In this document: in pieces, positions 6,649 through 55,710 of the stretch
Position numbering within the stretch: the first letter of the stretch is position 1
How the letters are laid out: every line of letters begins with the position of its first letter
Notes under the pieces: model-generated
Databases searched by the model: none
Seen by the model: the letters and a program-made list of their open reading frames with translations, nothing else
What the model was told of the DNA's origin: nothing
From: Candidatus Curtissbacteria bacterium
GTDB taxonomy: Bacteria; Patescibacteriota; Microgenomatia; Curtissbacterales; GWA2-41-24
Direction of reading: 5' to 3'
Assembly (NCBI GenBank): GCA_030647775.1
Contig: JAUSJC010000010.1
Coordinates: forward strand, 264,927-328,926
Length of the DNA stretch: 64,000 nucleotides
Program-made: the position numbers and the translations under genes

Positions 6649-6651
6649 CAA

Positions 6652-31564: not shown

Positions 31565-31613
31565 AACTTGCAATTTACTCAAAAAGTAATATAAAATTAC
31601 CAAGACGAAAAAA

Positions 31614-31630
31614 GCAAAGATTTTCTTTGC
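31614..31630 (-). terminator. Hairpin plus T-tract reading as an intrinsic terminator on the minus strand
   Basis: gcaaaga-ttt-tctttgc, preceded on the + strand by aaaaaa, which is TTTTTT on the minus strand. Confidence 0.35.
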
Positions 31631-39192: not shown

Positions 39193-40092
39193 ATGGATCA
39201 ACTAAAAATAGCGATTGTTGTCTTAAATTATAAAGGCTTGGGAGAAACGCTCGAATGTCTTGAGTCTTTAAGACGCTGTGCAAAAGGAAATTACAATGTC
39301 GAAATAATTGTTGTCGAAAACGGGTCGGATGACGGATCGGTTGAAGCGCTTTCCAAAATAAAGGACACACATTTTGTGGCAAATAATAAAAATCTAGGAT
39401 TCTCAGGAGGGATGAATAGCGGAATAAGATATGCGCTAAAAAGAAACGCCGATTATATTATCATTTTAAATAACGACACCATAGTCGACAAAAATCTCGT
39501 CGTAACTCTTGCTAAGTCGGCACAAAGTGCCGATATTGTTGCCCCGAAAATTTATTTCGCCCCGGGTTTTGAATTTCATAAGGATAGATACAAAAAGCAA
39601 GACCTTGGCAAAGTTATATGGTATGCCGGAGGTTCTATCGACTGGAAAAATATACTTGGAATACATACGGGAGTTGACGAGATAGACAAAGGCCAATTTG
39701 CAAAGTATAAAGAAATTGATTTCGCAACCGGCGCCTGTATGCTTATAAAAAAAGAGGTCTTTGAAAAGATTGGCCTTCTTGACGAAAAATATTTTTTATA
39801 TCTGGAAGATATGGATTTTTGTGTCAGGGTCAAAAAGGCAGGATTTAAAATAAAATTTTGCCCAGGAGCCATTTTATGGCATAAAAATGCCGTCTCTGCT
39901 GGCGGTTCCGGATCAAAACTTCAGGACTACTATATAACCCGCAACAGGCTTCTTTTTGCTTTTAAATACGCAAAGCCAAGGACAAAAATTGCCGTTTTAA
40001 AACAAATCATTTTACAATCCGGCGATCCTCTTAAAAGAAAGGCTCTGATTGACTTCTTAACTTTCAAATTTGGAGCAAAACAATTTACATAA
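39193..40092 (+). CDS. GT2 glycosyltransferase (rhamnosyltransferase-like)
   Basis: IAIVVLNYKG, then NNDT, and YLEDMDFC. Confidence 0.75.
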   Translation: MDQLKIAIVVLNYKGLGETLECLESLRRCAKGNYNVEIIVVENGSDDGSVEALSKIKDTHFVANNKNLGFSGGMNSGIRYALKRNADYIIILNNDTIVDKNLVVTLAKSAQSADIVAPKIYFAPGFEFHKDRYKKQDLGKVIWYAGGSIDWKNILGIHTGVDEIDKGQFAKYKEIDFATGACMLIKKEVFEKIGLLDEKYFLYLEDMDFCVRVKKAGFKIKFCPGAILWHKNAVSAGGSGSKLQDYYITRNRLLFAFKYAKPRTKIAVLKQIILQSGDPLKRKALIDFLTFKFGAKQFT

Positions 40093-40093
40093 C

Positions 40094-40879
40094 ATGAATA
40101 TCTCAGCCCTTGTTCTCGCTAGAAATGAAGAGGAAATGATCAAAGATTGTCTAAGTCAACTAAATTTTGTTGATGAAATAATTATTCTAGACCAGGGCTC
40201 AACAGATAAAACCCGCCAAATCGCCAAAAAATATACAAAAAAAATATTTACAACATCCTATGAATCATTTGCGAAAAATCGTGAAATCTTAGCTGCTCAC
40301 GCAAAAAGTGATTGGCTACTTTACATAGATGTCGACGAAAGGTTTGATAATGAGGTAATTGAAGAAATTAAAGAAGCTATCAGGCAGCAAAAATATCAGG
40401 CCTTCTACTTCCCCAGAAAAAACATCATTCTTGGAAAATGGCTCAGGCACGGCGGCTGGTTTCCGGATTACGTGCCGAAGCTTTTTGAAAGAGGTTCCTT
40501 AAAAGGTTGGACGGGGCAAGTTCATGAAAGCCCAAAGGTAGACGGGGCATTTGGATATTTCAAAACGCCCATTACGCATTTAACTGCCAGAAATTTAAGT
40601 TCGATGCTTGGAAAAACTATTAAATGGGCTAAGGTCGAAGCCGATCTGGCTTATAGTGCCAACCATCCCCGGGTAACAATCACCAGGGTTATTTGGGCAG
40701 CCGCCAAGGAATTCTCCGGACGTTATTTTGTAAAACTCGGTCTTCTGGATGGATTTATCGGTTTTATCGAAGCAGTCTATCAGGCCCTCCATCGAGCGAT
40801 AACCCTCGTCTATTTATGGGAAACACAAAATAATATTCAAGAATTGTTTGAAAAAACCAAGGACAAATTAAATGAATAA
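40094..40879 (+). CDS. GT2 glycosyltransferase (paralog of 38166)
   Basis: ISALVLARNEEEMIKDCL, YIDVDER, then WLRHGGWFPDY, which parallels WIRHSIWWPDY in the paralog. Confidence 0.7.
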   Translation: MNISALVLARNEEEMIKDCLSQLNFVDEIIILDQGSTDKTRQIAKKYTKKIFTTSYESFAKNREILAAHAKSDWLLYIDVDERFDNEVIEEIKEAIRQQKYQAFYFPRKNIILGKWLRHGGWFPDYVPKLFERGSLKGWTGQVHESPKVDGAFGYFKTPITHLTARNLSSMLGKTIKWAKVEADLAYSANHPRVTITRVIWAAAKEFSGRYFVKLGLLDGFIGFIEAVYQALHRAITLVYLWETQNNIQELFEKTKDKLNE

Positions 40880-41621
40880 GCACAGCTTTTCTTCGAATAA
40901 GCACAGCTTTTCTTCGAATAAGCATGGCTTTTCTTCGAATAAGCACTTTCTTTTTTACGACACTTATGAAAGACATAAAAAAATCGGCGGTTTAATCAAA
41001 AACGGTGAAACGGTACTGGATGTTGGCGGAGCCGCCAATCACCTGTCACAATTTGCCAAACCACGGAAGATTATCACTGCCAACCTGTCCGGTGGCGAAA
41101 ATTCCGATGTGATAATTAAGGGAGACAAATTACCTTTTAAAAATAATTCTTTTGACGTTGTTTGTTCAATTGATGTCCTTGAACATCTTCCCAAAAATGA
41201 TAGAGCGAAATTCATTAAAGAGTTAAAAAGGGTAGCAGCCAAAAGAATTATCTTGTCTTTTCCCATCCAAACCCCCCAGCATGAGGCCTACGAACGCCAA
41301 ACCCAAGAATGGCTCCAGTCCAAGGGGAAAGATGTCACCTATTTGAAAGAACACATAAAATTTGGACTTCCGGAAAAAGATGAAATCTTAAATATAACAA
41401 AGGGCCAAAAAACTGCTATGATTTATTCCGGCAATACCAATGTAAATAAATTCCTTTTCATGCTATTTATATTTGATCCAAGATTAAAATTCATAAGAAA
41501 ATTAACGTACTGCGCCAAACTTGTCTTTAATTTGGTAACGAACAGGTTGTTTTATGAGATCCTATCCAATAAAAAATTTAGAAAATCGGTAAATCGCGCC
41601 TACTTAATCATTGAAAAATGA
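40872..41621 (+). CDS. Class I SAM-dependent methyltransferase with a repeat-encoded N-terminus
   Basis: Motif I VLDVGGAANH and motif II FDVVCSIDVLEHL. The only in-frame ATG is at 40872, so the NKHSFSS repeats are translated if this start is used. Confidence 0.7.
   Translation: MNKHSFSSNKHSFSSNKHGFSSNKHFLFYDTYERHKKIGGLIKNGETVLDVGGAANHLSQFAKPRKIITANLSGGENSDVIIKGDKLPFKNNSFDVVCSIDVLEHLPKNDRAKFIKELKRVAAKRIILSFPIQTPQHEAYERQTQEWLQSKGKDVTYLKEHIKFGLPEKDEILNITKGQKTAMIYSGNTNVNKFLFMLFIFDPRLKFIRKLTYCAKLVFNLVTNRLFYEILSNKKFRKSVNRAYLIIEK
40874..40950. repeat. 21-bp tandem repeat gaataagcacagcttttcttc, about 3.7 copies
   Basis: Three full units (40874-40894, 40895-40915, and 40916-40936 carrying a ca-to-tg variant) plus a partial fourth. 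The array starts at the upstream stop codon and encodes (NKHSFSS)n at the methyltransferase N-terminus. Confidence 0.9.
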
Positions 41622-42667
41622 AATTTGGTTTTTATAGTCCTTATCTTGACACGTTTGGTGGGGGGGAGAGATATATGCTGTCCCTTGCCTCTCATCTTGC
41701 CCAAAACCATTTAGTTGATATTTTTTGGGATGATGTAAATATTAAACCTCCACTGGCGCGATTTTTAAAAATAGATCTTACTAAAACGAGGTTTGTTAAA
41801 AATATTTTTGCAGAAAGTTTAGCCAAAAGGGCATTTGCAATGCTTGGCTATAATTTAATTTTTGTTCTTTCCGATGGCTCTATTCCCTCCACATTCGCGC
41901 CCAAAAATATTCTTCATTTTCAAGTGCCATTTAACTTCCAGGGGACAAGCCTTAGCAATAAGCTGAAATTAAAAAGATATAACTACGTTGTCTGCAACTC
42001 CAATTTTACAAAAAAATTTATAGACAAGAGTTTTAATGTTAACTCAATAGTTATATACCCCCCAGTCGATATCCAATCAATAAAACCGGGGAAAAAAGAA
42101 AATTTAATAATTTCAGTCGGCCGTTTTAGCGCCCACCAGCTTCATCCCAAAAAGCAGGAAGTATTGATAGAAATATTTAAAGAACTTTCAAAAAAGGCAA
42201 AGGGATGGCGTCTTGTTTTGGCAGGGCAGGCAAAAAAAGAAGACGAGAAATATTTACGGCAGCTCAAAAAGGCTTGTCGCGGTTTTGCTATCAGAATAGA
42301 AGAAAATATGCCGATTGAGGAATTAGGGAAATTATATTCGCAGGCATCAATCTATTGGCACGCGACTGGATTTGGCGAGGACGAATTAAAAAACCCCGAA
42401 AAAATGGAGCACTTCGGAATTTCTACTGTTGAAGCTCAGGCTGGCGGTGCGGTTCCGGTAGTAATCGATAAAGGGGGGCAAAAAGAGATAGTCCAAGAAG
42501 GCAAAAATGGTCTTCTTTGGACGACAAAAGCCCAGCTTTATGAACAAACTTTAAGGCTGATTAACTCACCCGATCTCATCGAAAAACTTTCCCTGGCGGC
42601 TATTAGAAATAGTAAAAGATTTGACCAGGAAAAATTCTTCCGCAAATATGGAGAGATCATTTTATAA
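41618..42667 (+). CDS. GT4 (GT-B) glycosyltransferase
   Basis: C-terminal EHFGISTVEAQAGGAVPVV, matching the E-x7-E motif. Confidence 0.8.
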   Translation: MKFGFYSPYLDTFGGGERYMLSLASHLAQNHLVDIFWDDVNIKPPLARFLKIDLTKTRFVKNIFAESLAKRAFAMLGYNLIFVLSDGSIPSTFAPKNILHFQVPFNFQGTSLSNKLKLKRYNYVVCNSNFTKKFIDKSFNVNSIVIYPPVDIQSIKPGKKENLIISVGRFSAHQLHPKKQEVLIEIFKELSKKAKGWRLVLAGQAKKEDEKYLRQLKKACRGFAIRIEENMPIEELGKLYSQASIYWHATGFGEDELKNPEKMEHFGISTVEAQAGGAVPVVIDKGGQKEIVQEGKNGLLWTTKAQLYEQTLRLINSPDLIEKLSLAAIRNSKRFDQEKFFRKYGEIIL

Positions 42668-44981
42668 TAATATCTTAGGCCTTTTAGTAACCGTCCTTCT
42701 TATTTTGGCTTTTTTTCTTCCAGGCGCGTTTAAAGGTAAATTCCCAATCCCTGCAGATGCACTTATCAATCTTTATCATCCCCTAAGAGATATATCCCAA
42801 GACGGCTATAGTCCGGGCAGGTTCCCGGCAAAAAATACTCTCATTACCGATCCGGTTCTTCAAACTTATCCATGGAGGTTTACGGCAGTCAGCGATATGA
42901 AGTCTGGCAATTTTCCGCTATGGAATCCCTACAATTTTTCCGGCCAGCCGCTTTCAGCCAATATCCAATCCGCGCCCTTTCAAATCACAAACATTTTGTT
43001 TCTTGTTCTTCCTTTTAAAATAGCATGGTCAATCCAAATTATTCTTCCAGAAATCCTTTTGGGGGTTTTTATCTATTTTTACTTACGGTTTGGGCTCAAT
43101 CTTTCTATTATCCCATCGGTTTTTGGCGGTTTTATAGCACCTTTTACCGGTTTTTTTGTTGCTTGGATGACGTGGGGAACTGTGGTTACAACTGCCATGT
43201 GGCTGCCCCTAATTTTGCTTTCAATAGAACAAATTTTCAAAAAATCTCCTCTTTGGATAATTATCCTGATTCTTAGTGTCTCTCAAACAATTTTCTCCGG
43301 TCATTGGCAAACTGCCCTCTATGTTCTTGGCGCAAGCACCGTCTATATAATTTTTAAAATTGCCCAATTCAAAGATTATAAAAGATTAGGAGAAGTTGTA
43401 TTTGCGCTAATAGTTTCAGTTTTAATTACAGGCGTTCAAATCCTACCCGCCTTCGAATTTTTAAAATATTCTGCCAGAGGCTTGGATCAAGCCTTTACTT
43501 CCGGTAGACAAGATTGGTTTTTACCGCCTCAGCATCTAATCCAAATGATCGCGCCGGATTTTTTTGGTAATCCGGCAACGGGTAATTACTGGGGAATTTG
43601 GAATTATGGAGAATTTGTTTCCTTCATTGGCATCGTTCCGTTGTTTTTGGTAATTCTTGCTTTTTTCAAAAGGAATAGGGGAACTTACTTCTTTATCTTT
43701 TTAGCTGTAACATCTCTGGTTCTAGCTCTTCCCAATCCGATTTCAAAAATTCCCTATCTCTTAAACCTTCCGCAAATATCCTCCATGCAGCCCTCCAGAA
43801 TAATTTTTTTATTGGATTTTTCACTAATAATCCTTGCTGCTTTTGGGCTGGAGTTTCTGCTTAAGGAGAAAAAAATCAAAAAGATACTTTTTTCTGCACT
43901 CCCAATCATATTTATATCAATAGTTCTCGCTCTTGCACCACTTCTGGCAAAGGGTTTTTTCCCAAATATAAACGGTATAGATCCGATATCAATATCTTCA
44001 AGGAACGTAGTGATGCCGCTTTTTACCTCAATCCTATTACTGCTCATTATTTTTGTGAAAAAGATAACCACAAAAAAGCATTATTTGGTTTTAATCATCT
44101 TTTTGATAACGGCGTTTGAACTATTCAGGTTCTCTTACAAGTTCACGCCATTTTCAAAACTATCATGGGTTTTCCCCCAGACAAAAACACTGACATATTT
44201 AGGGTCTCAGGAAAAACCGTTTAGAATAATTACCACCGACAGAAGAATCCTTCATCCAAACTCATCCGCCGCTTACGGCATCGAGTCGATTGATGGTTAT
44301 GACCCCCTGTACCTGCTCAAGTATGCAAAATTTATCTCTGCCCTGCAGTCAAATAGCGTCCAGTCAGCCGTGTCTTCTTACAATAGAATCATTACGCCCC
44401 AAAAAATAGAATCGAATCTCACCAATCTTCTAAACGTAAAATATATACTTACTTTTAATGAATTTAAAAACCCGGATTTTGTAAAAGTTTTTGAAGAGGG
44501 GGAAACAAAAACATATTTGAATAAAAAATCTCTGCCAAGGGCGTTTTTTGTTAGTAGTGTGGAAAAACAATCAACCGACGCAGGAGAGCTTGCAAAGCTT
44601 TTGGACAAGAATTTCGATATTGCCTCTCAAGCAACATCGAAGGATTTTTCGTTTCCAAGACAAGTTCTTATCGGTCAAGTAAAAATTAATTCTTATAGCG
44701 ACTCTTCAATAACCCTAAAAACGTCGCTTGATAAAGAGGCCCCTCTAGTTTTAACAAATATCAATTACCCCGGTTGGAAAGCAGAAATTGACGGGAAAGA
44801 AACAAAGATAAATGAAGTTGATTTTATGTTCCAATCGGCATTAATCCCGGCAGGTGAACATATTGTTGATTTCAAATACAAGCCCCAATCCTTCTATAAT
44901 GGGTTATACTTAACTCTAGCTGGAATAGCGATTTCAATTGCAAGCTTAATCTTTTTATGCCGCAAAAAATATCTGTCGTAA
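42621..44981 (+). CDS. YfhO-family GT-C membrane glycosyltransferase (paralog 2)
   Basis: FPLWNPYNFSGQPLSANIQS, and the C-terminal INYPGWKAEIDGKETKI is YfhO-like. It is a clear paralog of 25349..27754. The exact start is uncertain by 1 nt in my counting. Confidence 0.7.
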   Translation: MTRKNSSANMERSFYNNILGLLVTVLLILAFFLPGAFKGKFPIPADALINLYHPLRDISQDGYSPGRFPAKNTLITDPVLQTYPWRFTAVSDMKSGNFPLWNPYNFSGQPLSANIQSAPFQITNILFLVLPFKIAWSIQIILPEILLGVFIYFYLRFGLNLSIIPSVFGGFIAPFTGFFVAWMTWGTVVTTAMWLPLILLSIEQIFKKSPLWIIILILSVSQTIFSGHWQTALYVLGASTVYIIFKIAQFKDYKRLGEVVFALIVSVLITGVQILPAFEFLKYSARGLDQAFTSGRQDWFLPPQHLIQMIAPDFFGNPATGNYWGIWNYGEFVSFIGIVPLFLVILAFFKRNRGTYFFIFLAVTSLVLALPNPISKIPYLLNLPQISSMQPSRIIFLLDFSLIILAAFGLEFLLKEKKIKKILFSALPIIFISIVLALAPLLAKGFFPNINGIDPISISSRNVVMPLFTSILLLLIIFVKKITTKKHYLVLIIFLITAFELFRFSYKFTPFSKLSWVFPQTKTLTYLGSQEKPFRIITTDRRILHPNSSAAYGIESIDGYDPLYLLKYAKFISALQSNSVQSAVSSYNRIITPQKIESNLTNLLNVKYILTFNEFKNPDFVKVFEEGETKTYLNKKSLPRAFFVSSVEKQSTDAGELAKLLDKNFDIASQATSKDFSFPRQVLIGQVKINSYSDSSITLKTSLDKEAPLVLTNINYPGWKAEIDGKETKINEVDFMFQSALIPAGEHIVDFKYKPQSFYNGLYLTLAGIAISIASLIFLCRKKYLS

Positions 44982-45877
44982 TCCCTAACTTCAACGGCGC
45001 AAATCTGCTATCTAAAAATTTACCGCAAGTTTTAAAAAACTGTCCCGGATGTCAAATAATTGTTGTCGATGATGCTTCCACCGACAACTCGGTTTCCATT
45101 CTCAAAGAAAAGTTTAAAAACATTAAACTGCTCATTAACCCCGAAAACCTCGGTTTTTCGGGAGCAGTCAATCGAGGGATCAAGAACTCCAGTGGTGATT
45201 TAGTTTTACTCTTAAACTCCGATGTTTCCCCAAGAATCGGTTTTTTAAAACCCACACTCGACCGCTTTAAAGATAAAAAAGTTTTCGCTGTCGCCCTGAA
45301 TGATTGCAGTCACGAGGGAGGGAAAATTATTGAGAGAGGGAAGGGAGGAGCCAATTATAAAAAAGGATTCTTAAACCATTTCGCGGCCAGAATCGGAGAA
45401 GGGGAAACCCTTTGGGTTTCCGGTGGATCCGGTCTTTTCGTCAGGGAAATCCTAAATAGGCTTGGGGGTTTTGATCCGATTTACTCCCCTTTTTATTGGG
45501 AAGACATAGATCTCTCTTTTAGAGCCCGCCAAAACGGATATATTTGCATTTTTGAACCGGCATCAAAAGTTGATCATTACCACGAAGAAGGTGCTATTAA
45601 AAAAACGAGAAAACCTTTCGAAATAAAGACTATCTCATATAGGAACCAATTCATTTTCATCTGGAAAAACTTTTCAGATCCTATTTTCCTGGTTCAGCAC
45701 TTATTATGGTTTCCTTACCATTTGCTAAAAGCGATTATGTCCAAAGACTTTGCTTTTTTCTTGGGTTTTACCAAAGCGCTTGCAAAAATTCCCCAAATAG
45801 TTCAAAATCCCCAGTATCGGGTTAGCCCAAAGGCTGTTTCCGACAGGGATGTTATTAAGAAATTCGAAAAACCATAA
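44957..45877 (+). CDS. GT2 glycosyltransferase
   Basis: ISVVIPNFNG, the D-x-D of VDDASTD, NSDV, and YWEDIDLSFR. Confidence 0.75.
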   Translation: MPQKISVVIPNFNGANLLSKNLPQVLKNCPGCQIIVVDDASTDNSVSILKEKFKNIKLLINPENLGFSGAVNRGIKNSSGDLVLLLNSDVSPRIGFLKPTLDRFKDKKVFAVALNDCSHEGGKIIERGKGGANYKKGFLNHFAARIGEGETLWVSGGSGLFVREILNRLGGFDPIYSPFYWEDIDLSFRARQNGYICIFEPASKVDHYHEEGAIKKTRKPFEIKTISYRNQFIFIWKNFSDPIFLVQHLLWFPYHLLKAIMSKDFAFFLGFTKALAKIPQIVQNPQYRVSPKAVSDRDVIKKFEKP

Positions 45878-46637
45878 TATTCTTTGGGAATCTTCCAAAA
45901 AGCCTAAAATTATCGTTGTTCTGCCTGCATATTTTGCCGAAAAAACCGTCAGAAAAACCTACGACGATCTCCCAAAAGATCTTATATCCGAAATCATCTT
46001 AGTCGACGACGCCTCAAAGGATAAAACCGTAGAGGTTGCTAAAAAGCTTGGCCTTTCGGTTTATATCCACCCCAAGAATAAGGGTTATGGTGGAAACCAA
46101 AAGACTTGCTACGATCAGGCGCTAAAGAGAAATCCCAGCGTTGTTGTTATGGTCCATCCCGATTATCAGTACGACCCCAAACTTTTAGGAATACTCTGTG
46201 AGCCAATCGTCAACGGTAGGGTAGATATAATGTTGGGTTCGCGAATTCAGAGCCGGCGCCAAGCCTTAGCAGGCGGTATGCCGCTTTATAAATATTTTTT
46301 CAATAGGTTCCTAACAATGCTGGAAAACATAGTTCTTGGAATAAATCTATCAGAGTTTCATACTGGTTACAGAGCATTTTCCTCCAAATCTTTAAACATG
46401 TTACCTTATCACAAATTTTCTGACGACTTCGTCTTCGATCAGGAGATTTTAATTTCGGCAGTCTCTTATGGTTTAACAATTTCAGACACGCCGGTTCCAT
46501 GCAAGTATTTTCCGGAAGCATCATCAATAAACTTTAAAAGATCAACTACATATGGGATCATGACTCTTTGGACACTTTCTCTTTATGTCATGCACCAGGC
46601 AGGTTTAATAAAAAGTAAATTCTTCAAGAAGATCTAA
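45849..46637 (+). CDS. GT2 glycosyltransferase (Dpm1/GtrB-like)
   Basis: IIVVLPAYFAE and the D-x-D of VDDASKD. Confidence 0.7.
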   Translation: MLLRNSKNHNILWESSKKPKIIVVLPAYFAEKTVRKTYDDLPKDLISEIILVDDASKDKTVEVAKKLGLSVYIHPKNKGYGGNQKTCYDQALKRNPSVVVMVHPDYQYDPKLLGILCEPIVNGRVDIMLGSRIQSRRQALAGGMPLYKYFFNRFLTMLENIVLGINLSEFHTGYRAFSSKSLNMLPYHKFSDDFVFDQEILISAVSYGLTISDTPVPCKYFPEASSINFKRSTTYGIMTLWTLSLYVMHQAGLIKSKFFKKI

Positions 46638-47637
46638 ATCTCTCAAGTAATTTCAAGAAGCCTGTTTTTGTTTCCTCCGTTACAGTAATTAGGACCAAGC
46701 CTTCGTTGGGTTGTCCGTAAACGATTCGCCACCCAAGCGGCGCCAAAATTGTTGCCGGCAAAACTGCGAGGTCTTCTTCACCAATAATTTCTATGACAGA
46801 ACCGTCATTCTTATTAGCAATATTTTCCTTTATACTTCTCGAAAGTTTCCGCTTGATTGTCGAAGCTGGATTTTGAATAATCTCAAACTTTTGGTTCTTT
46901 GAAAACCCCAAATCCGCAATATCCTCAAAAATCTTTTTTCTCCCGACCTTTAAATCAACAATCGAAAGCCTTGGCACAATTCCCTTTTTCAGAAAATTGA
47001 AAGTTGTTTCATCTCCAACAGCGATGACTTTACTTGGTAAGACTCGAGATTTAAGGTCGTCAATATCCCCAAAGAGTTCCCCGTGTGGCACCGAAAGTTC
47101 AATACGCAGGTTTTCCGGCAGATAATAATCCTTATTGCCTATTTTTGAAAAGTAACCGCTGCCGTCTCGATCGATTTCCCCAAGACTTATTCTGCTTGAA
47201 GAAATAGGTTTATTATCATCTGCCATAACAATTGGGAACACTAAAACTTTCAAAGAGGCAAGCCCCAGCCGTGTTCTTTTCTTGTTAATCAAAGCCGCTC
47301 CTTCCTGTGTGAGTTTGGTTACGGCAATCCCATCAATTGTTATATCTGAAACTGTACTGCCGAAGACATCGTCAAGTAAAATCGTTTTTGACCGTTTGTC
47401 AAAACCTTTCGCCCTTAAATAATTATTTAGCTCTGCCAACCGCAGCTTGAGAGGCCGGACGTTTAATTTTTCGCTTGATATAAATTTATCGGTTGTAATC
47501 CCAATAGAAACAGCCGCCGCTTTGGAAAAGGCAAAATCCAAAAAAGCTTTATGTCCCAGATGTAAATAATCAAAGGTTCCGCCAAGTGCCAAATGATTAA
47601 ATGGGTACCCCATAAATGTTAATCTTAGCTCCCCCAT
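46624..47637 (-). CDS. Bifunctional archaeal-type PPAT / DUF359 (GTP-dependent dephospho-CoA kinase-like) protein
   Basis: The N-terminal half has a cytidylyltransferase fold with the HxGH motif (GGTFDYLHLGH). The C-terminal half carries GDETTF and GEEDLAVLPA, which I recall as DUF359 signatures. Start taken at the internal ATG (MGELRL) to avoid overlap with the convergent... rather, the divergent pyrC-like gene. Confidence 0.55.
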   Translation of the reverse strand: MGELRLTFMGYPFNHLALGGTFDYLHLGHKAFLDFAFSKAAAVSIGITTDKFISSEKLNVRPLKLRLAELNNYLRAKGFDKRSKTILLDDVFGSTVSDITIDGIAVTKLTQEGAALINKKRTRLGLASLKVLVFPIVMADDNKPISSSRISLGEIDRDGSGYFSKIGNKDYYLPENLRIELSVPHGELFGDIDDLKSRVLPSKVIAVGDETTFNFLKKGIVPRLSIVDLKVGRKKIFEDIADLGFSKNQKFEIIQNPASTIKRKLSRSIKENIANKNDGSVIEIIGEEDLAVLPATILAPLGWRIVYGQPNEGLVLITVTEETKTGFLKLLERFRSS

Positions 47638-47660
47638 CTTAAATTTGCTAGAATTAACTC

Positions 47661-48734
47661 GTGTCCAAGCTTGACAAAATTCTGAAATTACCAGGCTTGG
47701 TTGATGTCCATGTTCACCTTCGGGAACCCGGAGCAACCCAAAAAGAAGATTTCCGAACCGGAACCATGGCAGCTGTCGCTGGTGGTTATACCCAGATTTT
47801 AGATATGCCCAATAACACACCGCCAACAACAAGTCCTAATGCTCTAAATCAAAAAATTGATTTGGCAAAGGGTAAAATTTGGTGCGATCTAGGTTTTAAT
47901 TTCGGAGCAACTGCCTCTTCCACAAAATATTTTAGAAAGATTGAGAATAAAGTTTTCGGCCTTAAAGTTTATATGAATCAAACAACCGGACCGCTTCTTG
48001 TCGAGAGCGAAGAAGATCGGGATTTGATATTCAAATCATGGCCTTCTTCTTTACCGATTATGGTTCACGCAGAAGGGGAGACCGTGGAAATAGCTATCAA
48101 GCTTGCTAAAAAATACCATAAATCACTTCACGTTTGTCATGTAACGGCAGATCAAATTAATGCAATCGAAAACGCAAAAAAGGAAAACGTTTTGATAAGC
48201 TGTGAAGTTTGTCCCCATCACCTTTTTTTGAATCAATTTGACATTCAAAAACTGGGGCCGTTTGGTTTAATGAAACCGCCGCTGCTTTCCAAAAAAGATC
48301 AAGAAAAACTCTGGAGTAAAATGGATAAAATCGATATGATATCAACCGACCACGCACCTCATACAAAAGAAGAAAAGATGAATCAGCCTGGCCCTAAGTT
48401 TGGTGTTCCCGGTCTTGAAACAACGCTCCCGCTTCTTTTAAAAGCCGTTGAAGAAGGCAGAATTTCGCTTGAAAGATTAATCGAAATGACCGCAACAAAT
48501 CCCAGGAAAATCTTTAAAATTCCAACTCAAAAAAATACTTACGTTCTTATCAATTCAAAAATTACTTATAAAATTTCTAACAAAAATTTATTTACAAAAT
48601 GCCGCTGGACTCCCTTTGTCGGTATGGAAGGCAGGGGAGAAATACAGAAAGTTATTATCCGCGGCAAAACGGTTTATGAGAATGGTAAATTTATTGGCAG
48701 ACCCATAGGCAAAGTAATCTATCCTCGTATTTAA
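47661..48734 (+). CDS. pyrC: Dihydroorotase-like amidohydrolase
   Basis: LPGLVDVHVHLREPG, DMPNNTPP, and STDHAPH. Confidence 0.8.
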   Translation: MSKLDKILKLPGLVDVHVHLREPGATQKEDFRTGTMAAVAGGYTQILDMPNNTPPTTSPNALNQKIDLAKGKIWCDLGFNFGATASSTKYFRKIENKVFGLKVYMNQTTGPLLVESEEDRDLIFKSWPSSLPIMVHAEGETVEIAIKLAKKYHKSLHVCHVTADQINAIENAKKENVLISCEVCPHHLFLNQFDIQKLGPFGLMKPPLLSKKDQEKLWSKMDKIDMISTDHAPHTKEEKMNQPGPKFGVPGLETTLPLLLKAVEEGRISLERLIEMTATNPRKIFKIPTQKNTYVLINSKITYKISNKNLFTKCRWTPFVGMEGRGEIQKVIIRGKTVYENGKFIGRPIGKVIYPRI

Positions 48735-48892
48735 TGTAGCGATTTTAAAACATCAAAAAACCAGGCCAGTAAACTTTCATTTTTCACCAGCACACTTTTT
48801 TCAGCAAGCACTCTTTCTGAGTCAGGAATCGAAAGATCTATGTTTGATTCACCGATCACCGGCCTGCCGATCGAGTTTAAATAGGCAGTTGT

Positions 48893-48901
48893 GCTACAAT
48901 T
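48893..48901 (+). promoter_or_regulatory. Extended -10 element (TGcTACAAT) close to the GTG start of the next gene
   Basis: tgctacaat at 48893-48901 with a GTG start at 48911. If used, the mRNA would have little or no leader. Confidence 0.25.
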
Positions 48902-48910
48902 TCAAAAATT

Positions 48911-50662
48911 GTGAAGTTTTGGCCCAATCCCCATTTTTTATCGATATTTGCTCTCCTTTTTTTCTCAGTCTTCGCGCTTAAAAGCTTGAGTACTTCCGGA
49001 TTCTATACTAGCCATGATGGAGAAACCCATACGGCCAGAATTGCCCAATACTTTATAGCACTTTCAGACTGGCAAATTCCCCCGCGCCATGCCGCCTCAT
49101 TCTATAGTGGACTTGGCAGTCCGATTTTTGTCTACATTTATCCTCTTCCGTACCTACTGGGATCGGCAGTCCACGTGCTGGGTTTTTCTTTCGCAAATTC
49201 ATTCAAGATAATAATGGCACTGGGTTTCGTCATGTCGCAAGTTTTTGCCTATCTTTGGTTTTTCGAGTTTTTTAAAAGCCAAAAAGCAGCTTTTCTGGGG
49301 GCTCTATTTTATGTATGGGTACCTTACAGGCTTTCCCTGGTTTATGTTCGGGGGTCTCTTTCCGAACTTCTTGCTTATACTTTTCTGCCTCTGGCATTTT
49401 ATGCTCTCACAAAATTATCAAAACAAAAAAATCCTCTTTGGATTGCCATAAGCGCCGTTTCTATCTCCTTGATTCTCCTGTCACAAAATCTCGTTGCGGC
49501 AATTACACTGCCTGTAATTTTTGCCTACGTCATTATCCTTAGTATTTTTGAAAAATCAATCAAATATTTAGCTTTGGCTTCAATCGCTTTTTTGTGGGGA
49601 TTGGCGCTGTCGCTAGTTACCTACTTGCCGTCACTTTTTGAAATAAAATTTACGAGATTTAGCGAAACCATTCCGCTTGCCTATGCCAACCACTTTATTA
49701 CCCTAAAACAGCTCATCAGTTCGCCTTGGGGTTATGGTTTCGACCTGGATGGAAGCGCCGCCGATGCGATGTCTTTTCAGATAGGCCTTGCGCACATCCT
49801 GATTTTAGGTACCGCCATTTTTCTGTGTACATACTTTTTTGTCAAAAAATTCCCTTTCGTTAAGAAAATTGGCCGGGTTTTTGTGCGCGAGGTAGAAGCG
49901 AAATCCCAAGCTGTTGCCATTTTTTTCATTGCCGCCTTTCTAATCAGCGTCGTTTTGATGCTCGACATTAAAGCGACTAGATCAATCTGGAACGATTTTA
50001 AACCACTCCACACAATTGATATCCCCTGGAGATTTTTAGGTATCTCCTCACTCGCCACTGCTTTCTTGGCGGCATTCGTTTCTAAAACCGTTAAAAGCGG
50101 ATTGATATTTATTTTGGCAATTTTGGCGGTAGTTATTGCAAACAGAAATAACCTAAGAATCAATGAACCGGTTTTTTATAGTGACAGCCATTTTTTAAAC
50201 TATACCGGGAGTGCCACCCAATACGGTGAATTTACGCCGGTCTGGAGACAGACGACGAGGGTGCCCATCGGCATTGACCCCGGCAGCAAAATTCGTTCAA
50301 TCCCGCAAACAGTCGATATAATAGGCCTTGTCGCTTCGTCCCAAAAAATCACTTTCGATGCCGATGTTCTTTCCCAAACAGCCGAAGTTAGAATCAATAA
50401 GTTCTATTTTCCCGATACCGATGTTAAGGTTGACGGCAAAAAATTAAAGCCGTTTTCGGATTTTTCAATTACCGGTTCGACTAGCTTGGTTATTGATAAG
50501 GACGAAGACGGATCAGGCATGCTTCTTATAAAACTGGCAAAAGGCCTCCACCATATCGATGTAGCCTACAAAGAAACTACCCTTAGGTTATTTGCCGACA
50601 TTCTCTCTCTTGTGGCTTTCGTCGCGGCTCTTTTCGTCATTGTCAAATATGCTAAAAAATAA
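48911..50662 (+). CDS. YfhO-superfamily-like polytopic membrane protein (paralog of 27754 and 34900)
   Basis: GFYTSHDGETHTARIAQY...SPIFVYIYPLPYLL. A C-terminal beta domain and a final TM are present. Confidence 0.55.
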   Translation: MKFWPNPHFLSIFALLFFSVFALKSLSTSGFYTSHDGETHTARIAQYFIALSDWQIPPRHAASFYSGLGSPIFVYIYPLPYLLGSAVHVLGFSFANSFKIIMALGFVMSQVFAYLWFFEFFKSQKAAFLGALFYVWVPYRLSLVYVRGSLSELLAYTFLPLAFYALTKLSKQKNPLWIAISAVSISLILLSQNLVAAITLPVIFAYVIILSIFEKSIKYLALASIAFLWGLALSLVTYLPSLFEIKFTRFSETIPLAYANHFITLKQLISSPWGYGFDLDGSAADAMSFQIGLAHILILGTAIFLCTYFFVKKFPFVKKIGRVFVREVEAKSQAVAIFFIAAFLISVVLMLDIKATRSIWNDFKPLHTIDIPWRFLGISSLATAFLAAFVSKTVKSGLIFILAILAVVIANRNNLRINEPVFYSDSHFLNYTGSATQYGEFTPVWRQTTRVPIGIDPGSKIRSIPQTVDIIGLVASSQKITFDADVLSQTAEVRINKFYFPDTDVKVDGKKLKPFSDFSITGSTSLVIDKDEDGSGMLLIKLAKGLHHIDVAYKETTLRLFADILSLVAFVAALFVIVKYAKK

Positions 50663-52274
50663 TCTATTACTCGTCATAATTATTGCTCTATCAATAGCCC
50701 TTCGTTTTTACCAGCTTGGCCAAAATCCGCCGGCATTGGATTGGGATGAAACCGCTCATGGCTATAACGCTTACAGTCTATTAAAAACAGGCCGCGACGA
50801 ATATGGTTATAAATTGCCGCTGTCAATAAGGTCATTTGACGACTATAAACCGCCGCTTTATACATACCTCGTAGTTCCGTCGGTTGCCGTCTTCGGCATT
50901 AATGATTTCGCTGTCCGCTTTCCGTCTGCTTTTCTTGGGGTTTTGGCAGTCTTTTTCACTTACCTGATGGTTTTTGAACTTTTCAAAAACAAAAATATTG
51001 CTCTTCTTGCCGCATTATTCTTAGCTATTTCTCCATGGCACGTTCAATTTTCAAGAGTCGCCTTTGAGACAAATAGTGCAACTTTTTGGTCGGTGCTTGG
51101 CACCTGGGCGTATTTAAAAGGCATGGATTCCAAAGGTAAAAAAATCACATTGTGGCTGTCACTAGCGGCAATAGCATTCGGTGCCAATCTCTACATGTAC
51201 CATAATGCCCGGGTTTTTATACCAATTTACTCACTCGCTCTTGTAATCCTTTTTCGGAAATTTATTCAAAAGAATATAAAATATATTATTCCTCCTCTCT
51301 TAATTTTCGCGATATTTATTGTATTTTTGATACCCATCATTTTCTCAATTTCCGGCCAGCTTAGATTCAAAGGTACCACAATTTTTTCCGACGTTTCTCC
51401 GCAGTTTCATGCCTCAGGCCTAATCGTCCAGGATGAAAAAGCCGGACTTGGAACCGTTGGCAAAATCTTGCATAACCGCCGCTTTGTCTACGTGCCTATT
51501 TTAATTGATAATTACCTTTCACATTTTCGCCCGACATTCCTTTTTATAACTGCCGATATGGAAAGGCATCACGCCCCCCAAATCGGTCTTTTATATTTTT
51601 GGGACCTGCCGTTTATTGTTGCCGGTATTTACTTTTTAATAAAAAACAAATTCGTTGCGTCTTCCAAAATTATCGTTTTATGGTGGTTTTTGATTTCTCC
51701 GGTAGCAGCCTCCGTAACTTGGGGAGTACCGCATTCTCTAAGGAGCGAGATTTTTCTGCCCACTTTCCAGATCTTTGCGGCAATTGGTGTTTATACCCTT
51801 TACACTTACTCAAAAAGGAAAAAACTCTTCGCAATCTTGGCGGCTATTACTCTTTTGGCCAATTTCACCTTTTATCTTCATCAATATTATGTTCATATGC
51901 CGTACGATTTTTCTAAATATTGGCTTTATGGCAGAAAAGAAGCAATAGAGTACACCGAAGCAAATAAAAATAAATACCAGCAAGTCATTGTTTCCACCAA
52001 GTTGGAACAGCCGCATGAGTTCTGGCTTTATTATTCAAAATACGACCCGGTTAAATATCTTTCAGAAGGTGGAACCGTTTCTGGCGGATTTTTAGAAGAT
52101 AGAAATAAATTCGATAAATATTTGTTCAAACCTATCGATTTTGCCAAGCAAAATGAAGAAGCAAAAACCCTATTCGTTGGCACGCCCAAAGAATTCCCTC
52201 CCGGTGTAAATATCCTAAAGCAAATAAATTATCTAAATGGCGAGCCGGCTATTTATATTATAGGCAATGACTAA
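50649..52274 (+). CDS. ArnT/PMT-family (GT39/GT83-like) GT-C glycosyltransferase, array paralog 1
   Basis: LRFYQLGQNPPALDWDETAHGYNAYS carries the D-E loop motif. Also YKPPLY and SPWHVQFSR. Confidence 0.75.
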   Translation: MLKNNLLLVIIIALSIALRFYQLGQNPPALDWDETAHGYNAYSLLKTGRDEYGYKLPLSIRSFDDYKPPLYTYLVVPSVAVFGINDFAVRFPSAFLGVLAVFFTYLMVFELFKNKNIALLAALFLAISPWHVQFSRVAFETNSATFWSVLGTWAYLKGMDSKGKKITLWLSLAAIAFGANLYMYHNARVFIPIYSLALVILFRKFIQKNIKYIIPPLLIFAIFIVFLIPIIFSISGQLRFKGTTIFSDVSPQFHASGLIVQDEKAGLGTVGKILHNRRFVYVPILIDNYLSHFRPTFLFITADMERHHAPQIGLLYFWDLPFIVAGIYFLIKNKFVASSKIIVLWWFLISPVAASVTWGVPHSLRSEIFLPTFQIFAAIGVYTLYTYSKRKKLFAILAAITLLANFTFYLHQYYVHMPYDFSKYWLYGRKEAIEYTEANKNKYQQVIVSTKLEQPHEFWLYYSKYDPVKYLSEGGTVSGGFLEDRNKFDKYLFKPIDFAKQNEEAKTLFVGTPKEFPPGVNILKQINYLNGEPAIYIIGND

Positions 52275-53865
52275 AAAATATCTGCTGGTAATAATCATTC
52301 TCGCCGCATTTTTGCGATTTTATAAACTTGCCTCCTTTCCTGTTTCTCTTTACTGGGACGAAGCGGCAATCGGCTATAATGCTTTTTCCATTGCCAAAAC
52401 CGGCCACGATGAGTATGGAAGAAAATTCCCTCTCCTTTTTCAGTCATTCAACGATTACAAACTACCGGGCTATATTTATACCGACTCCATTTTTATAAAA
52501 GTTTTCGATTTGTCGGAGTTTTGGGTTAGATTCCCGTCGGCGCTTTTTGGAACGTTTGCCGTTTTGTTAATTTACTTGTTGAATCGTAAAATTTTTAATG
52601 AAAATATAGCTCTTGCCTCCGCATTTTTGCTGGCAATTTCCCCTTGGCATTTACAATTTTCCCGGGCCGCTTTTGAAGCAAATGCGGCTTTGACCTTGGT
52701 CGTTTTGGGAATCGTCCTAATTTTTTACGGGTTCAGAAATAAAATAGCGGCTATGCTTTCACTGCCAATTTTGTTTTTATCATTTTATTTCTATCATTCT
52801 CCAAGAATCTTTGTTCCTGCTATCCTGCTTACGATAGCTTTTTTATACCGCAAAGAAATTGCCAAAAACGCAAAAGCATATATTGTCGGTTTGGTTGTTG
52901 GTGCAATATTGATTATCCCGATTTTAGTCCAAATTGTTTCGCCTCAAGGCATGAAGCGGGTAGGAGAGGTAAGCCTTTTTTCAGACCGGTCAATAATCGA
53001 ACCGTATGTTCTTATCAGAGAATCGGTAAACATCCCTTCATCTGCAATTTTCTTAAACCGCAGAATTCCGCTTGCGTTTGAAATACTTCATAGTTACTTT
53101 TCGCATTTTTCACCAGGGTTCTTATTTTTCGGTGACGATCCAAACCCAAGGCAAAAATCGGCCCTCCACGGCAATCTTTATTTGGTTGAAATCCCGCTTC
53201 TTTTGGCGGGCTTATGGATGCTGTTAAAACAAAAAGACAACAAATCTAAACTCTTCATCGTCGCTTGGCTTTTAGTTGCTCCTATCCCGGCGGGTTTAGC
53301 TAGAGAATTCCCGCATTCCTTGCGCGCGCTTTTAATGCTTCCTGCACTTGTCACCCTATCCGCCATAGGTTTTACCTCTGCCTTCAGGATCAAGTTCGCG
53401 AAATTAATAATCCCGATAGTCTTTTCGCTTTCAATAATCAATTATTTATTCACTTATTACGTGGTATCCCCGCAAACGAGTAGCGCCTCTTGGGCATATG
53501 GTTATGAGCAAGCCTTTGTCAAAGTCGCCGCACTTGAGGGGGATTACGATCGGGTTATTTTCACCGGCAACTACTGGAAACCATATATTTTCTATCTTTT
53601 TTATAATAAAGTTGATCCCGGCATCTTTGCCAAAAGCCGCAGCGAAACGGAATTGGGTAAGTACAGATTCGGCGTGGCCGCTTGGGATGGCGGCAAAAAT
53701 TTTGACAACACGAGGGTTGAAGAACTCAAATCTGGCAAAACCCTTGTCGTACTTTCGCCCCAGGAGTTTTCAACTCTTATGTCTGGAGAAAAACTTAAAT
53801 CACTTCAAACGATTTACGATTTCGCCGGTACCAACGAAATATTTAAGATAGGGCAGTGGCAATGA
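52267..53865 (+). CDS. ArnT/PMT-family GT-C glycosyltransferase, array paralog 2
   Basis: LRFYKLASFPVSLYWDEAAIGYNAFS and SPWHLQFSR. Confidence 0.75.
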   Translation: MTKKYLLVIIILAAFLRFYKLASFPVSLYWDEAAIGYNAFSIAKTGHDEYGRKFPLLFQSFNDYKLPGYIYTDSIFIKVFDLSEFWVRFPSALFGTFAVLLIYLLNRKIFNENIALASAFLLAISPWHLQFSRAAFEANAALTLVVLGIVLIFYGFRNKIAAMLSLPILFLSFYFYHSPRIFVPAILLTIAFLYRKEIAKNAKAYIVGLVVGAILIIPILVQIVSPQGMKRVGEVSLFSDRSIIEPYVLIRESVNIPSSAIFLNRRIPLAFEILHSYFSHFSPGFLFFGDDPNPRQKSALHGNLYLVEIPLLLAGLWMLLKQKDNKSKLFIVAWLLVAPIPAGLAREFPHSLRALLMLPALVTLSAIGFTSAFRIKFAKLIIPIVFSLSIINYLFTYYVVSPQTSSASWAYGYEQAFVKVAALEGDYDRVIFTGNYWKPYIFYLFYNKVDPGIFAKSRSETELGKYRFGVAAWDGGKNFDNTRVEELKSGKTLVVLSPQEFSTLMSGEKLKSLQTIYDFAGTNEIFKIGQWQ

Positions 53866-55646
53866 CTAAAAACAAGCTTTTTATTCGCAGAAAAGCTCTG
53901 CTTATTCGCAGAAAAGCTCTGCTTATTCGCAGAAAAGCTCTGCTTATTCGCAGAAAAGCTCTGCTTATTCGCAGAAAAGCTCTGCTTATTCGCAGAAAAG
54001 CTCTGCTTATTCGCAGAAAAGCTTTGCTTAATTCGAGCACCACGAGAATCAAGGTTCTGAGTAAAACTCAGGTTCTTCTTTTTCTCGCAATTGCCATTTT
54101 ATCCTTTGGTCTAAGATTTTATAATCTTTCGGAAAATCCTCCGGGCCTTTATTGGGATGAGGCGGCCTTTGGTTACAACGCTTATTCAATTTTAAAAACA
54201 GGGCACGATGAACATGGGCGCTTTTTGCCATTATTTTTTGAAAGCTTTGGGGACTGGAAACTACCGGGCTATTTCTATCTCCTTGTTCCGTCAATAAAAC
54301 TTTTTGGCCTGTCAGAATTATCGGTACGCTTCCCTTCTGCCTTACTTGGTTCACTGGCGCCGCTTATTTTCTTTCTGCTTATCAAAAAAATTACCAAAAA
54401 TACAAACCTGGCCTTGACGAGTATGTTTTTTCTGGCAATTTCCCCCTGGCATATCCAGTTCTCAAGGTCTGGTTTTGAGTCTACTCCAAGTCTTTTCTTC
54501 GTTGTTTCTGGCGTCTATCTGATGCTTTTAGGGATCGAGACAAAGAAAATATCAATACTTTCTTTGTCTTTTTTTCTTTTTGTTCTTTCAATCTACACAT
54601 ACCATGCTTCCCGAATTTTTGTTCCGCTTCTGGTTATTTCAATAATTCTTACAAACTTGAAGTGGATTAAGCAAAATATTAAACTTTGGGCTTTTCCAGC
54701 CCTCATCGGGCTAATTTTGTTGATTCCGATGATTATATTCACCCTTTCCCCAAATGGTAGAAGCAGGGCAATTTCCGAGTCGGCTTTTAAAGAAGATGAT
54801 CGCCAAACTGCCCGCCTAAACTTTGACCAGAAGTCCAAAAAACCCTTGCGCTTCTTGTCCGGGTATCTTTTCAATCCTCCTGCTTATTATACGCAAGTTG
54901 TGCTTATCGGGTACTTGAATCATTTTTCCCCGACCTTCCTTTTTATAAACGGTGACCAGATAGGCCGCCATTCCCAAGTCGATATGGGGCAAATTTATCT
55001 GTTTGATGCTATCTTTTTATTTCTGTCCTTCTCCGCTTATAAAAAACTTAAAGGAGACGGCAAAAAAATAATGCTTTTTTGGCTGCTGCTTGCACCAATT
55101 CCGGCTAGCTTTGTCACCCCGACGCCCCATGCTCAAAGAGCCCTTCAGATGTCCATACCCCTGGCTTTTCTCTCAAGCCTCGGGGCTTATTATTTTTTCT
55201 CGGCCAAAAAACTAATTGTTATTAAAATTCTTCTTGCCGGAGTTGTGATATTTTCCTTTGCCGTTTTTATCCACCTCTTATTTGTTCACTATCCTAAAAA
55301 GTTTGCTGCCGATTGGCAGGACGGCTATAGGCAAATGGTTCAAGAGGTCAAAAAATACCAAGATGACTATCCAAAAGTATACATAACCAATATAAACAAT
55401 GTCCCCTATATTTATTTACTTCTTTACTTGCCATACGATCCAGAAAAATTTGTCAAAGAAAATAGCACCAAGGGCGCTTTTGGCAAGTATGTTTTTATTG
55501 ACCCAAATTACAATATATATAATAAAGGAAGAGTTCTTTATGTTGCACCCTCATGGCAAAAAGAAGACGGCGAAAGGCTTTCTACCGTCAATGATTCTTC
55601 CGGCAGGCATATTTATTCACTTTGGGATATAGGGGGTAAAAATTAA
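53856..55646 (+). CDS. ArnT/PMT-family GT-C glycosyltransferase, array paralog 3, with a repeat-encoded basic N-terminal extension
   Basis: GTG start, then (IRRKALL)x7, then LRFYNLSENPPGLYWDEAAFGYNAYS and SPWHIQFSR. No canonical start codon lies between the repeat and the first TM helix. Confidence 0.7.
   Translation: MAMTKNKLFIRRKALLIRRKALLIRRKALLIRRKALLIRRKALLIRRKALLIRRKALLNSSTTRIKVLSKTQVLLFLAIAILSFGLRFYNLSENPPGLYWDEAAFGYNAYSILKTGHDEHGRFLPLFFESFGDWKLPGYFYLLVPSIKLFGLSELSVRFPSALLGSLAPLIFFLLIKKITKNTNLALTSMFFLAISPWHIQFSRSGFESTPSLFFVVSGVYLMLLGIETKKISILSLSFFLFVLSIYTYHASRIFVPLLVISIILTNLKWIKQNIKLWAFPALIGLILLIPMIIFTLSPNGRSRAISESAFKEDDRQTARLNFDQKSKKPLRFLSGYLFNPPAYYTQVVLIGYLNHFSPTFLFINGDQIGRHSQVDMGQIYLFDAIFLFLSFSAYKKLKGDGKKIMLFWLLLAPIPASFVTPTPHAQRALQMSIPLAFLSSLGAYYFFSAKKLIVIKILLAGVVIFSFAVFIHLLFVHYPKKFAADWQDGYRQMVQEVKKYQDDYPKVYITNINNVPYIYLLLYLPYDPEKFVKENSTKGAFGKYVFIDPNYNIYNKGRVLYVAPSWQKEDGERLSTVNDSSGRHIYSLWDIGGKN
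53881..54037. repeat. 21-bp tandem repeat ttattcgcagaaaagctctgc, about 7.5 copies
   Basis: Seven full units (53881-54027; the last has a c-to-t change) plus a partial eighth. The unit is the reverse complement of the 40874 repeat unit with 2 mismatches in 21. Confidence 0.9.
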
Positions 55647-55710
55647 AAAATTAATTTTCGTCCTTTTAGCACTAACCTTTTTCTTCAGGCTTTGGCAAAC
55701 AACCGGCTGC

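Follow-up and report, generated by a model that had tools for sequence, protein, structure and literature searches.

We analysed a 64,000-nt stretch of Candidatus Curtissbacteria DNA (contig JAUSJC010000010.1, positions 264,927 to 328,926; hereafter the window, in which all positions are counted) that carries two tandem arrays of a 21-nt repeat. Array 1 lies at the 5′ end of a gene for a class I S-adenosylmethionine (SAM)-dependent methyltransferase, and array 2 at the 5′ end of a gene for a GT39 membrane glycosyltransferase. The initial annotation of this DNA had taken the pair for a contingency-type locus devoted to surface glycan biosynthesis. Our sequence comparisons indicate instead that both arrays are members of a repeat family dispersed through the Microgenomates, and not a glycosylation-specific switch. 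The features at the two sites are as follows:

40874 to 40946, plus strand: array 1 (Tandem Repeats Finder: period 21, 3.5 copies, 94% matches, unit GAATAAGCACAGCTTTTCTTC)
40872 to 41621, plus strand: open reading frame (ORF) of the SAM-dependent methyltransferase (Pfam Methyltransf_11/25/23), with array 1 as codons 2–25
40877 to 40879, plus strand: TAA stop of the upstream GT2 gene (40070–40879), supplied by GAA-TAA in unit 1 of array 1
53881 to 54035, minus strand: array 2 (Tandem Repeats Finder: period 21, 7.3 copies, 98% matches, unit TTATTCGCAGAAAAGCTCTGC)
53862 to 55646, plus strand: ORF of the GT39 / ArnT-like (PMT_2) membrane glycosyltransferase (Pfam PMT/PMT_2)

Both arrays are genuine 21-bp repeats. 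Array 1 consists of three full units and a partial unit, GAATAAGCAC, and its unit has the form GAATAAGC-aCa-GCTTTTC-tTc; read on the minus strand, the 7.3 units of array 2 have the form GAATAAGC-aGa-GCTTTTC-tGc. A search of the window with the unit of array 1, allowing up to 3 mismatches, returned three plus-strand hits at array 1, six minus-strand hits at array 2 and no match elsewhere in the window (0.00 expected, from 100 dinucleotide shuffles). Each of the six minus-strand hits has exactly 2 mismatches, in agreement with the reverse complementarity first described, and the sole differences between the arrays fall at positions 10 and 20, the centres of two loops. The density of the family here is two arrays per 64 kb. 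Array 2 is 155 nt long, and its figure of 7.3 copies, which comes from a metagenome-assembled genome (MAG), is to be taken as an estimate. In an independent short-read assembly of the same strain (Logan SRR13727527, locus L109) the contig ends 1.4 units into this array. Exact-protein look-ups of neighbouring genes returned this one other contig, and nothing for two other neighbours.

The inverted arrays are unlikely to act as the ends of an invertible 13-kb segment. Array 1 and the reverse complement of array 2 share no identical stretch longer than 10 nt, since their units all differ at positions 10 and 20, and this is too short for RecA-type recombination; inversion would also part the body of the GT39 gene from its start codon. 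A CRISPR array was likewise rejected: the units stand head-to-tail, without spacers. At 31608–31628 there is a solo degenerate unit-like sequence, AAAAAAGCAAAGATTTTCTTTGC, with 4 mismatches to the family consensus, either a decayed copy or a chance match.

The arrays lie in frame, as originally reported. The methyltransferase begins MNKHSFSS NKHSFSS NKHGFSS NKHFLFYD, read in what proved to be the dominant frame of the family, and the GT39 protein begins MTKNKLF(IRRKALL)x7NSSTTRIKVLSKTQVLLFLAI, in which array 2, read on the plus strand, gives seven IRRKALL heptads. Each array lies just after the start codon of its gene. The GT2 stop inside the first unit of array 1 recurs in the orthologous locus L072, with GAATAG, and the stop of the upstream PMT_2 paralogue overlaps the GT39 start as ATGA (53862–53865). 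A Shine-Dalgarno-like AAGGA stands 8 nt 5′ of the methyltransferase ATG at 40872. In neither gene did inspection of the sequence reveal another in-frame ATG, GTG or TTG separating the array from the conserved domain, and because of this both arrays are very probably translated, from conserved start codons that lie upstream of them. The surrounding 24 kb form a glycosylation cluster with a flippase, five GT2 proteins, a GT1 protein, a YfhO homologue, PTPS_related membrane proteins and tandem PMT_2 paralogues.

The dispersed repeat family

When genomes were scanned, one per species and 596 Gb in all, the pattern GAATAAGCANNGCTTTTCTNC returned 70 loci, 58 of them in 32 species-level MAGs of the candidate phyla radiation (CPR), in many cases 3–6 per MAG by one count and up to 5 by another. 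The remaining 12 are chance singletons in unrelated taxa, without a flanking partial unit, where about 17 hits are expected by chance according to our own arithmetic (18 specified bases, 596 Gb, two strands). The MAGs with the 58 loci are labelled Curtissbacteria, Daviesbacteria, Gottesmanbacteria, Levybacteria, 'Patescibacteria group' and, in some cases, 'uncultured Gammaproteobacteria'. A two-unit pattern yielded 31 more loci in groundwater and sediment metagenomes. The 21-mer therefore has many copies outside the locus, and arrays 1 and 2 belong to the same family.

The MAGs labelled 'uncultured Gammaproteobacteria bacterium' (L002, L006, L015, L016, L033, L041 and others) are 'binchicken' co-assemblies of the CAY and CAZ series. 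Some of their loci are orthologous to Curtissbacteria or Patescibacteria loci (L033 with L024, L041 with L034), and to judge from these matches the gammaproteobacterial labels are probably wrong. A phage origin of the family was rejected, with 0 unit matches in 2.9 million viral contigs, as was a known RNA family, since Rfam at gathering threshold returned only tRNAs from the window and 16 repeat-bearing loci. In full-text literature searches, no account of a repeat like this turned up for CPR, Patescibacteria or Microgenomates.

The family consensus is GAATAAGC-aNa-GCTTTTC-tNc, in arrays of 1–7 or more copies. Each unit is a quasi-palindrome whose arms, GAA(T)AAGC and GCTTTTC, are complementary save for one bulged T, and two alternative 7-bp hairpins can be drawn, within the unit across the aNa loop or with the neighbouring unit across the tNc loop. 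The unit is seven codons long, and five of its six reading frames are open. Among units not used as search seeds, the stem positions are 82–99% conserved and positions 10 and 20 are free (64% and 47%). Because third-codon positions in these units are as conserved as first and second positions (82–95%), conservation acts on DNA rather than on the peptide. Loop bases are mostly uniform within one array and differ between arrays, as local amplification would produce. Arrays start near unit phase 0 and finish after GAATA, GAATAA or GAATAAG in 37 of 64 cases, and filled sites are flanked by AATAA/TTATT on both sides.

Arrays are often joined to companion modules. Module M1 has a 48-nt period and the consensus GAATAAG-AACCTGAGC-nnn-GCTCAGAACCTTGATTCTCG-nnnnn-CTCGAATTAAG. 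We found 11 copies of it, at L016, L020, L032, L047, L053, L074, L085, L100, L102 and L104 and next to array 2 in the window:

54027 to 54081, minus strand: M1 copy adjoining array 2, GAAGAAG-AACCTGAGT-ttt-ACTCAGAACCTTGATTCTCG-tggtg-CTCGAATTAAG, read on the plus strand as LLNSSTTRIKVLSKTQVL

The predicted M1 hairpin, CTGAGY-nnn-RCTCAG, keeps its pairing in the window copy through a compensatory change from C:G to T:A. Module M2 has the form ...AGCTTGCGGTCC-variable hairpin-GCGGGCCTAAAG... and is translated SLRSS...GLK. M1 and M2, too, are open in the NKQSFSx frame.

Other palindromic elements were seen alongside these. GT39 homologues carry many lineage-specific in-frame insertions in the same loops (L110 (P0079), codons 121–160 and 535–560; P0006, P0049, P0081), among them a stand-alone M2, CTTGCGGTCC-hairpin-CGGGCCTAAAG, again read SLRSS...GLK, and an HPELDS palindrome that is present in the window as well. 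Short palindromic modules also occur at 5400–5580, 5830–5880, 6490–6650, 33339 and 35906 of the window, including TGTCATCCTGAACTCGTTTCAGGATCT three times and modules that resemble GTCATTGCGAGCGCAGCGAAGCAATCTC and CGAGTCTTCGAGTTACAAGCGCTC. One copy, at 5848, is in frame within the ORF 4951–6156, Sua5/TsaC-like by its GGVVIFPTDTVYGIGC motif; on the strength of this copy and the other modules, the genome holds several families of in-frame hairpin elements. Higher-order tandem repeats of the unit plus hairpins, found in L020 (1650–2000, 60-nt), L063 (7350–7620, 25-nt and 57-nt) and L014 (3640–3910, 42-nt), show hierarchical satellite evolution.

More than half of the arrays (55 of 95) lie inside ORFs of at least 100 amino acids, where Pfam domains continue on both sides; the remainder include intergenic copies. 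The hosts include methionyl-tRNA formyltransferase (fmt; Formyl_trans), cysteinyl-tRNA synthetase (CysRS, cysS; tRNA-synt_1e), triosephosphate isomerase (tpiA; TIM), NAD synthase (NAD_synthase), DnaA (dnaA; Bac_DnaA), a penicillin-binding-protein transglycosylase (Transgly), an RseP-type M50 protease (Peptidase_M50), a PfkB kinase (PfkB), dCTP deaminase (DCD), initiation factor IF-2 (IF-2), a phosphoglucomutase whose domain I is split (PGM_PMM), an epimerase, an NTP-transferase/HAD/Mur-ligase fusion, DegT, GT1 and GT2 proteins and several GT39 proteins.

Within genes, one reading of the unit prevails. Of the 55 genic arrays, 40 (~73%) are in the sense frame NKQSFS[S/A/T] (AAT-AAG-CAA-AGC-TTT-TCT-NCG), one is in another open sense frame and 14 are antisense, read as IRRKALL, SQKSFAY or EEKLCLF. 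The availability of targets was rejected as the cause of this bias: counts of AATAA/TTATT in the coding sequence of the window predict ~19%, 21% and 58% for NKQSFS, other sense and antisense, respectively (excess by binomial p = 5e-17). The frame that contains TAA never lies within a gene, and in the window it supplies the GT2 stop. About 36% of the genic arrays lie within 60 nt of a start codon, compared with 6% of AATAA sites. Several unrelated proteins (L038/L080, L022, L082, L103, L067) also bear (IRRKALL)n tails at the N-terminus, with n from 1 to at least 5, some directly before a transmembrane helix. Others are on soluble proteins, so there is no strict link between frame and membrane topology.

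Empty and filled sites in orthologous genes

Array 2 is absent from all 1,901 other GT39 homologues that we found. The closest orthologues (P0002, 86% identity; P0003, 85%) lack the repeat and have ~529 amino acids, compared with 594 in the window; their N-termini, MKKNQIIVF and MRKNQLLIF, stand directly ahead of the first transmembrane helix. Nearly every other homologue has the same length of ~529 residues and the same kind of start. Relative to them the window gene contains the following tract, whose boundaries are uncertain by a few nt owing to microhomology:

53874 to 54068, plus strand: net in-frame insertion in the GT39 gene, 195 nt or 65 codons (7 × 21 + 48)

In the orthologous DNA at L071 the repeat is missing although the ATGA overlap of stop and start is kept. 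Because this repeat-free orthologue keeps the overlap, array 2 is a recent insertion 3′ of a conserved start codon, and the polarity of the change is from empty to filled. Insertions of a single unit arose independently in other GT39 genes, as an N-terminal IRRKALL in L105 (P0058) and at an internal position in L106, where the insert is exactly 21 nt with TTATT at both edges (ATTTATT-CGCAGAAAAGCTTTGC-TTATT). GT39 genes thus have 0, 1 (P0058/L105) or 7 copies. At least seven GT39/PMT_2 paralogues stand in a tandem row at 50592–64000 of the window, with their conserved N-terminal motif at 50726, 52338, 54137, 56275, 58202, 61317 and 62987, and the orthologous region of L071 has a comparable run of nine.

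The methyltransferase gives a graded series. Among the 120 homologues listed, the ancestral N-terminus is MNKxFL(P/F)YD in proteins of 225–228 amino acids. In Curtissbacteria the lengths form a ladder of 228, 235, 242 and 249 amino acids, corresponding to 0–3 heptads (248–249 for the three-heptad form): MNKRFLFYD opens the 228-residue protein, MNKQSFSS-NKHFLFYD that of 235 residues, and two heptads that of 242. In DNA, the sequence of L107, which has no copy, is ATGAATAAACGCTTC; L108, with one copy, contains exactly 21 nt more, ATG-AATAAGCAGAGCTTTTCTTCA-AATAAACAT. The three copies of L072 (P0122) have decayed through point mutation and a 3-nt deletion, unlike those of the window, which are near-identical.

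Copy number also differs between other orthologous loci (3 in L015 and 4 in L093; 3 in L077 and at least 5 in L103) and is stable across samples at others, such as L024, L033, L089 and L101. The expectation that related assemblies would differ in copy number was therefore borne out, both in the methyltransferase (0/1/2/3) and in GT39 (0 versus 7). The numbers reported for longer arrays are unreliable and serve only as estimates, because assemblies often break or gap inside arrays: runs of N occur in L014, L019 and L020, L109 ends in an array, and L016, L018, L026, L044, L052, L060 and L069 are among many with arrays at contig ends. The family is a systematic cause of MAG fragmentation in Microgenomates.

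Origin and persistence of the arrays

We consider it likely that the repeat is a palindromic minisatellite tolerated in coding sequence and that the two arrays are local amplifications of a family shared across the Microgenomates (Curtiss-, Davies-, Gottesman- and Levybacteria and relatives). New copies would be seeded at pre-existing AATAA sites, so that AATAA flanks the insert on either side. Arrays would then grow and shrink by whole units, most likely by slipped-strand mispairing aided by the palindromic structure, and could take up M1 and M2. In genomes that are ~90% coding, the survivors would be insertions that keep the frame open and add a harmless peptide, a filter favouring N-terminal tails, loops and gene junctions and, above all, the NKQSFSx frame. 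The comparisons show that the arrays belong to the family, that the change is one of insertion, that the inserts are compatible with translation and that orthologues differ in copy number, whereas the slippage, the filter and the mobilisation step are our inference. For the methyltransferase, the history suggested is one old insertion at the MNK start, re-homogenised to 3.5 copies. For GT39 it would be one recent composite insertion in antisense (seven units plus M1) after codon 4, which puts a tail of (IRRKALL)7, basic and amphipathic, in front of the first transmembrane helix. The opposite orientations of the arrays, which had seemed unusual for one repeat recruited twice, would then be those of two insertions of a dispersed quasi-palindromic family.

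Several observations weigh against this account. The 40:1 preference for one sense frame exceeds simple tolerance, and the 21-mer is conserved over order-level divergence; either may mean a function of the peptide or of DNA/RNA, and a minisatellite explains the two only partly. Glycan or envelope genes make up 12 of 37 annotated hosts, about one third, and some association with glycosylation may exist. The AATAA flanks, which are also part of the unit, are compatible with both target-site duplication and microhomology-mediated copying. Folding of the array RNAs is modestly better than that of shuffles, with z-scores of only −2.6 and −1.85, and the hairpins on which the slippage argument leans are therefore weak; a strong RNA structure was rejected on the same values. 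A mobilising function, such as a transposase or recombinase, was not identified; the sequence covered was 64 kb of this genome and stretches of at most 8 kb of the others, with no genome-wide search.

The contingency locus of the initial annotation would make the arrays hypermutable tracts, selected because gains and losses of copies adjust or diversify two enzymes of surface-glycan synthesis among the cells of a population. Tandem in-frame repeats at the 5′ ends of two genes of a glycosylation cluster are what it would predict, and the 0–3 copy ladder of the methyltransferase orthologues and the one-third share of glycan or envelope hosts fit it as well. Yet the same unit sits in dnaA, cysS, tpiA, fmt and the genes for IF-2, phosphoglucomutase and RseP, and in intergenic DNA, so that a dedicated glycan locus does not describe it. 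Nor does an on/off switch: a 21-nt unit leaves the frame unshifted, and neither array lies in a promoter spacer. The absence of the GT39 array from every other homologue found points to a recent accident and not a conserved device, and older methyltransferase arrays decay by point mutation (P0122/L072), unlike a maintained mutable tract. We regard this explanation as quite improbable; most likely, varying the glycans is not a dedicated task of the arrays.

Functions of the 21-mer itself bear on the same evidence. It might be a cis-element to which a conserved factor of the Microgenomates binds, as DNA site or as RNA structure, with arrays at gene starts and junctions regulating translation, coupling or mRNA stability; a dimeric DNA-binding protein, for which 21 bp is two helical turns, or an RNA-binding regulator would be examples. 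Nucleotide conservation across orders with variation confined to loop centres, the compensatory change in the M1 hairpin, the sense orientation of ~75% of genic copies and their excess near start codons all agree with a site of this kind. We nevertheless think it unlikely, since copies lie at arbitrary internal positions of unrelated ORFs, 14 of 55 genic arrays are antisense, density is low, folding is weak, Rfam gives no match, and the bias of frame speaks for filtering of the encoded peptide rather than for a site in DNA or RNA. That bias (40 of 55 genic arrays in one frame, where ~19% is expected), together with the opening of M1 and M2 in the same frame, could instead speak for the protein: NKQSFSx might be a selected heptad (a sorting signal, a tag or a flexible linker, for example) whose usefulness as a peptide makes it spread between genes. 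But synonymous positions are conserved like non-synonymous ones, IRRKALL and SQKSFAY readings and intergenic copies exist, the heptad may be N-terminal, within domains or C-terminal depending on the host, and it matches no Pfam family. A selected peptide module therefore seems very unlikely.

A bolder version of the account is that the unit, M1 and M2 are substrates of an active, lineage-wide mobilisation system that seeds seven-codon units into coding sequence, the elements having adapted to one reading frame. Candidate agents would be a Y1/RAYT-like enzyme (REP-associated tyrosine transposase, where REP stands for repetitive extragenic palindromic) that recognises single-strand hairpins, here the bulged-T hairpin with an AATAA target, or an undescribed form of templated copying. 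We hold this as a tentative and somewhat doubtful possibility. If true, it would be the first mainly intragenic REP-like system, one that continually remodels protein termini and loops in CPR bacteria.

For the two window genes, the preferred reading, a coding-tolerated minisatellite, argues against a purpose-built switch of glycan variation. Its wider interest lies in the genomes concerned. CPR bacteria (Patescibacteria) have tiny, gene-dense genomes, and their proteins are noted for unexplained lineage-specific insertions. The family is one concrete source of such insertions, which it places in envelope and housekeeping genes of at least four candidate orders. It has consequences for gene calling and for the alignment of protein families in these organisms, explains contig breaks and scaffold gaps in their MAGs and offers natural variable-number tandem repeat (VNTR) markers for tracking strains in groundwater communities. 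It also raises the question of what mobilises so short an element, and why one frame is used in 40 of 55 cases.

Comparison with known repeat systems

The simple-sequence contingency loci of Neisseria and Haemophilus have units of 1–7 nt and act by frameshift or promoter spacing. The present arrays resemble them as tandem repeats near the 5′ ends of surface-related genes with slippage-prone copy number. They differ in having a frame-preserving 21-nt unit inside ORFs, and hosts that are not restricted to surface, virulence or host-interaction genes. Compared with MITEs (transposable elements of miniature size, with terminal inverted repeats and a target-site duplication), the unit has arms that are inverted repeats, and AATAA/TTATT flank both sides but also belong to the unit.

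REP elements and bacterial interspersed mosaic elements (BIMEs) are imperfect palindromes of 21–65 bp that are extragenic, number hundreds per genome and are mobilised by RAYT (Y1) transposases; within clusters, REPs usually alternate in orientation. The likeness lies in the very short, bulged, imperfect palindromes, their arrays and their mosaics with other short motifs. The location is different, with at least 55 of 95 arrays inside long ORFs where REPs are extragenic.

Rickettsia palindromic elements (RPEs; Ogata et al. 2000, as summarised in PMC10969869 and PMC3184786) are in-frame palindromic insertions in unrelated genes, single and ~105–150 bp long. The 21-nt family shares their multi-copy dispersal, palindromic sequence and in-frame insertion without disruption of ORFs, in many unrelated and often housekeeping genes, to which a conserved peptide is added; both also inhabit small, gene-dense genomes of host-dependent bacteria. 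Unlike RPEs, it is tandem and length-variable, has the modular companions M1 and M2 and belongs to a different phylum, in which it spans at least four candidate orders. Built of tandem 21-nt units in place of a single element of ~100–150 bp, it is an analogue and not a member of the Rickettsia family, and no sequence similarity to RPEs is expected.

Mycobacterial interspersed repetitive units (MIRU-VNTR; Supply et al. 1997, as summarised in PMC3184786) are 40–100 bp long and intergenic within Mycobacterium operons. Like the 21-nt family they are dispersed minisatellites whose copy number differs between strains, as here in the methyltransferase ladder and in L015/L093 and L077/L103. MIRU units carry ORFs, and their ends overlap the stop and start codons of flanking operon genes, much as array 1 overlaps the GT2 stop; insertion is likewise suggested by sites that are empty or filled and by short direct repeats beside them. 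Unlike MIRUs, the 21-nt unit is mostly inside ORFs, including within domains, although array 1 has a MIRU-like junction position. By these comparisons, the family is closest in behaviour to Rickettsia palindromic elements and mycobacterial MIRUs, with a modularity like that of REP/BIME elements, while being a member of none of them.

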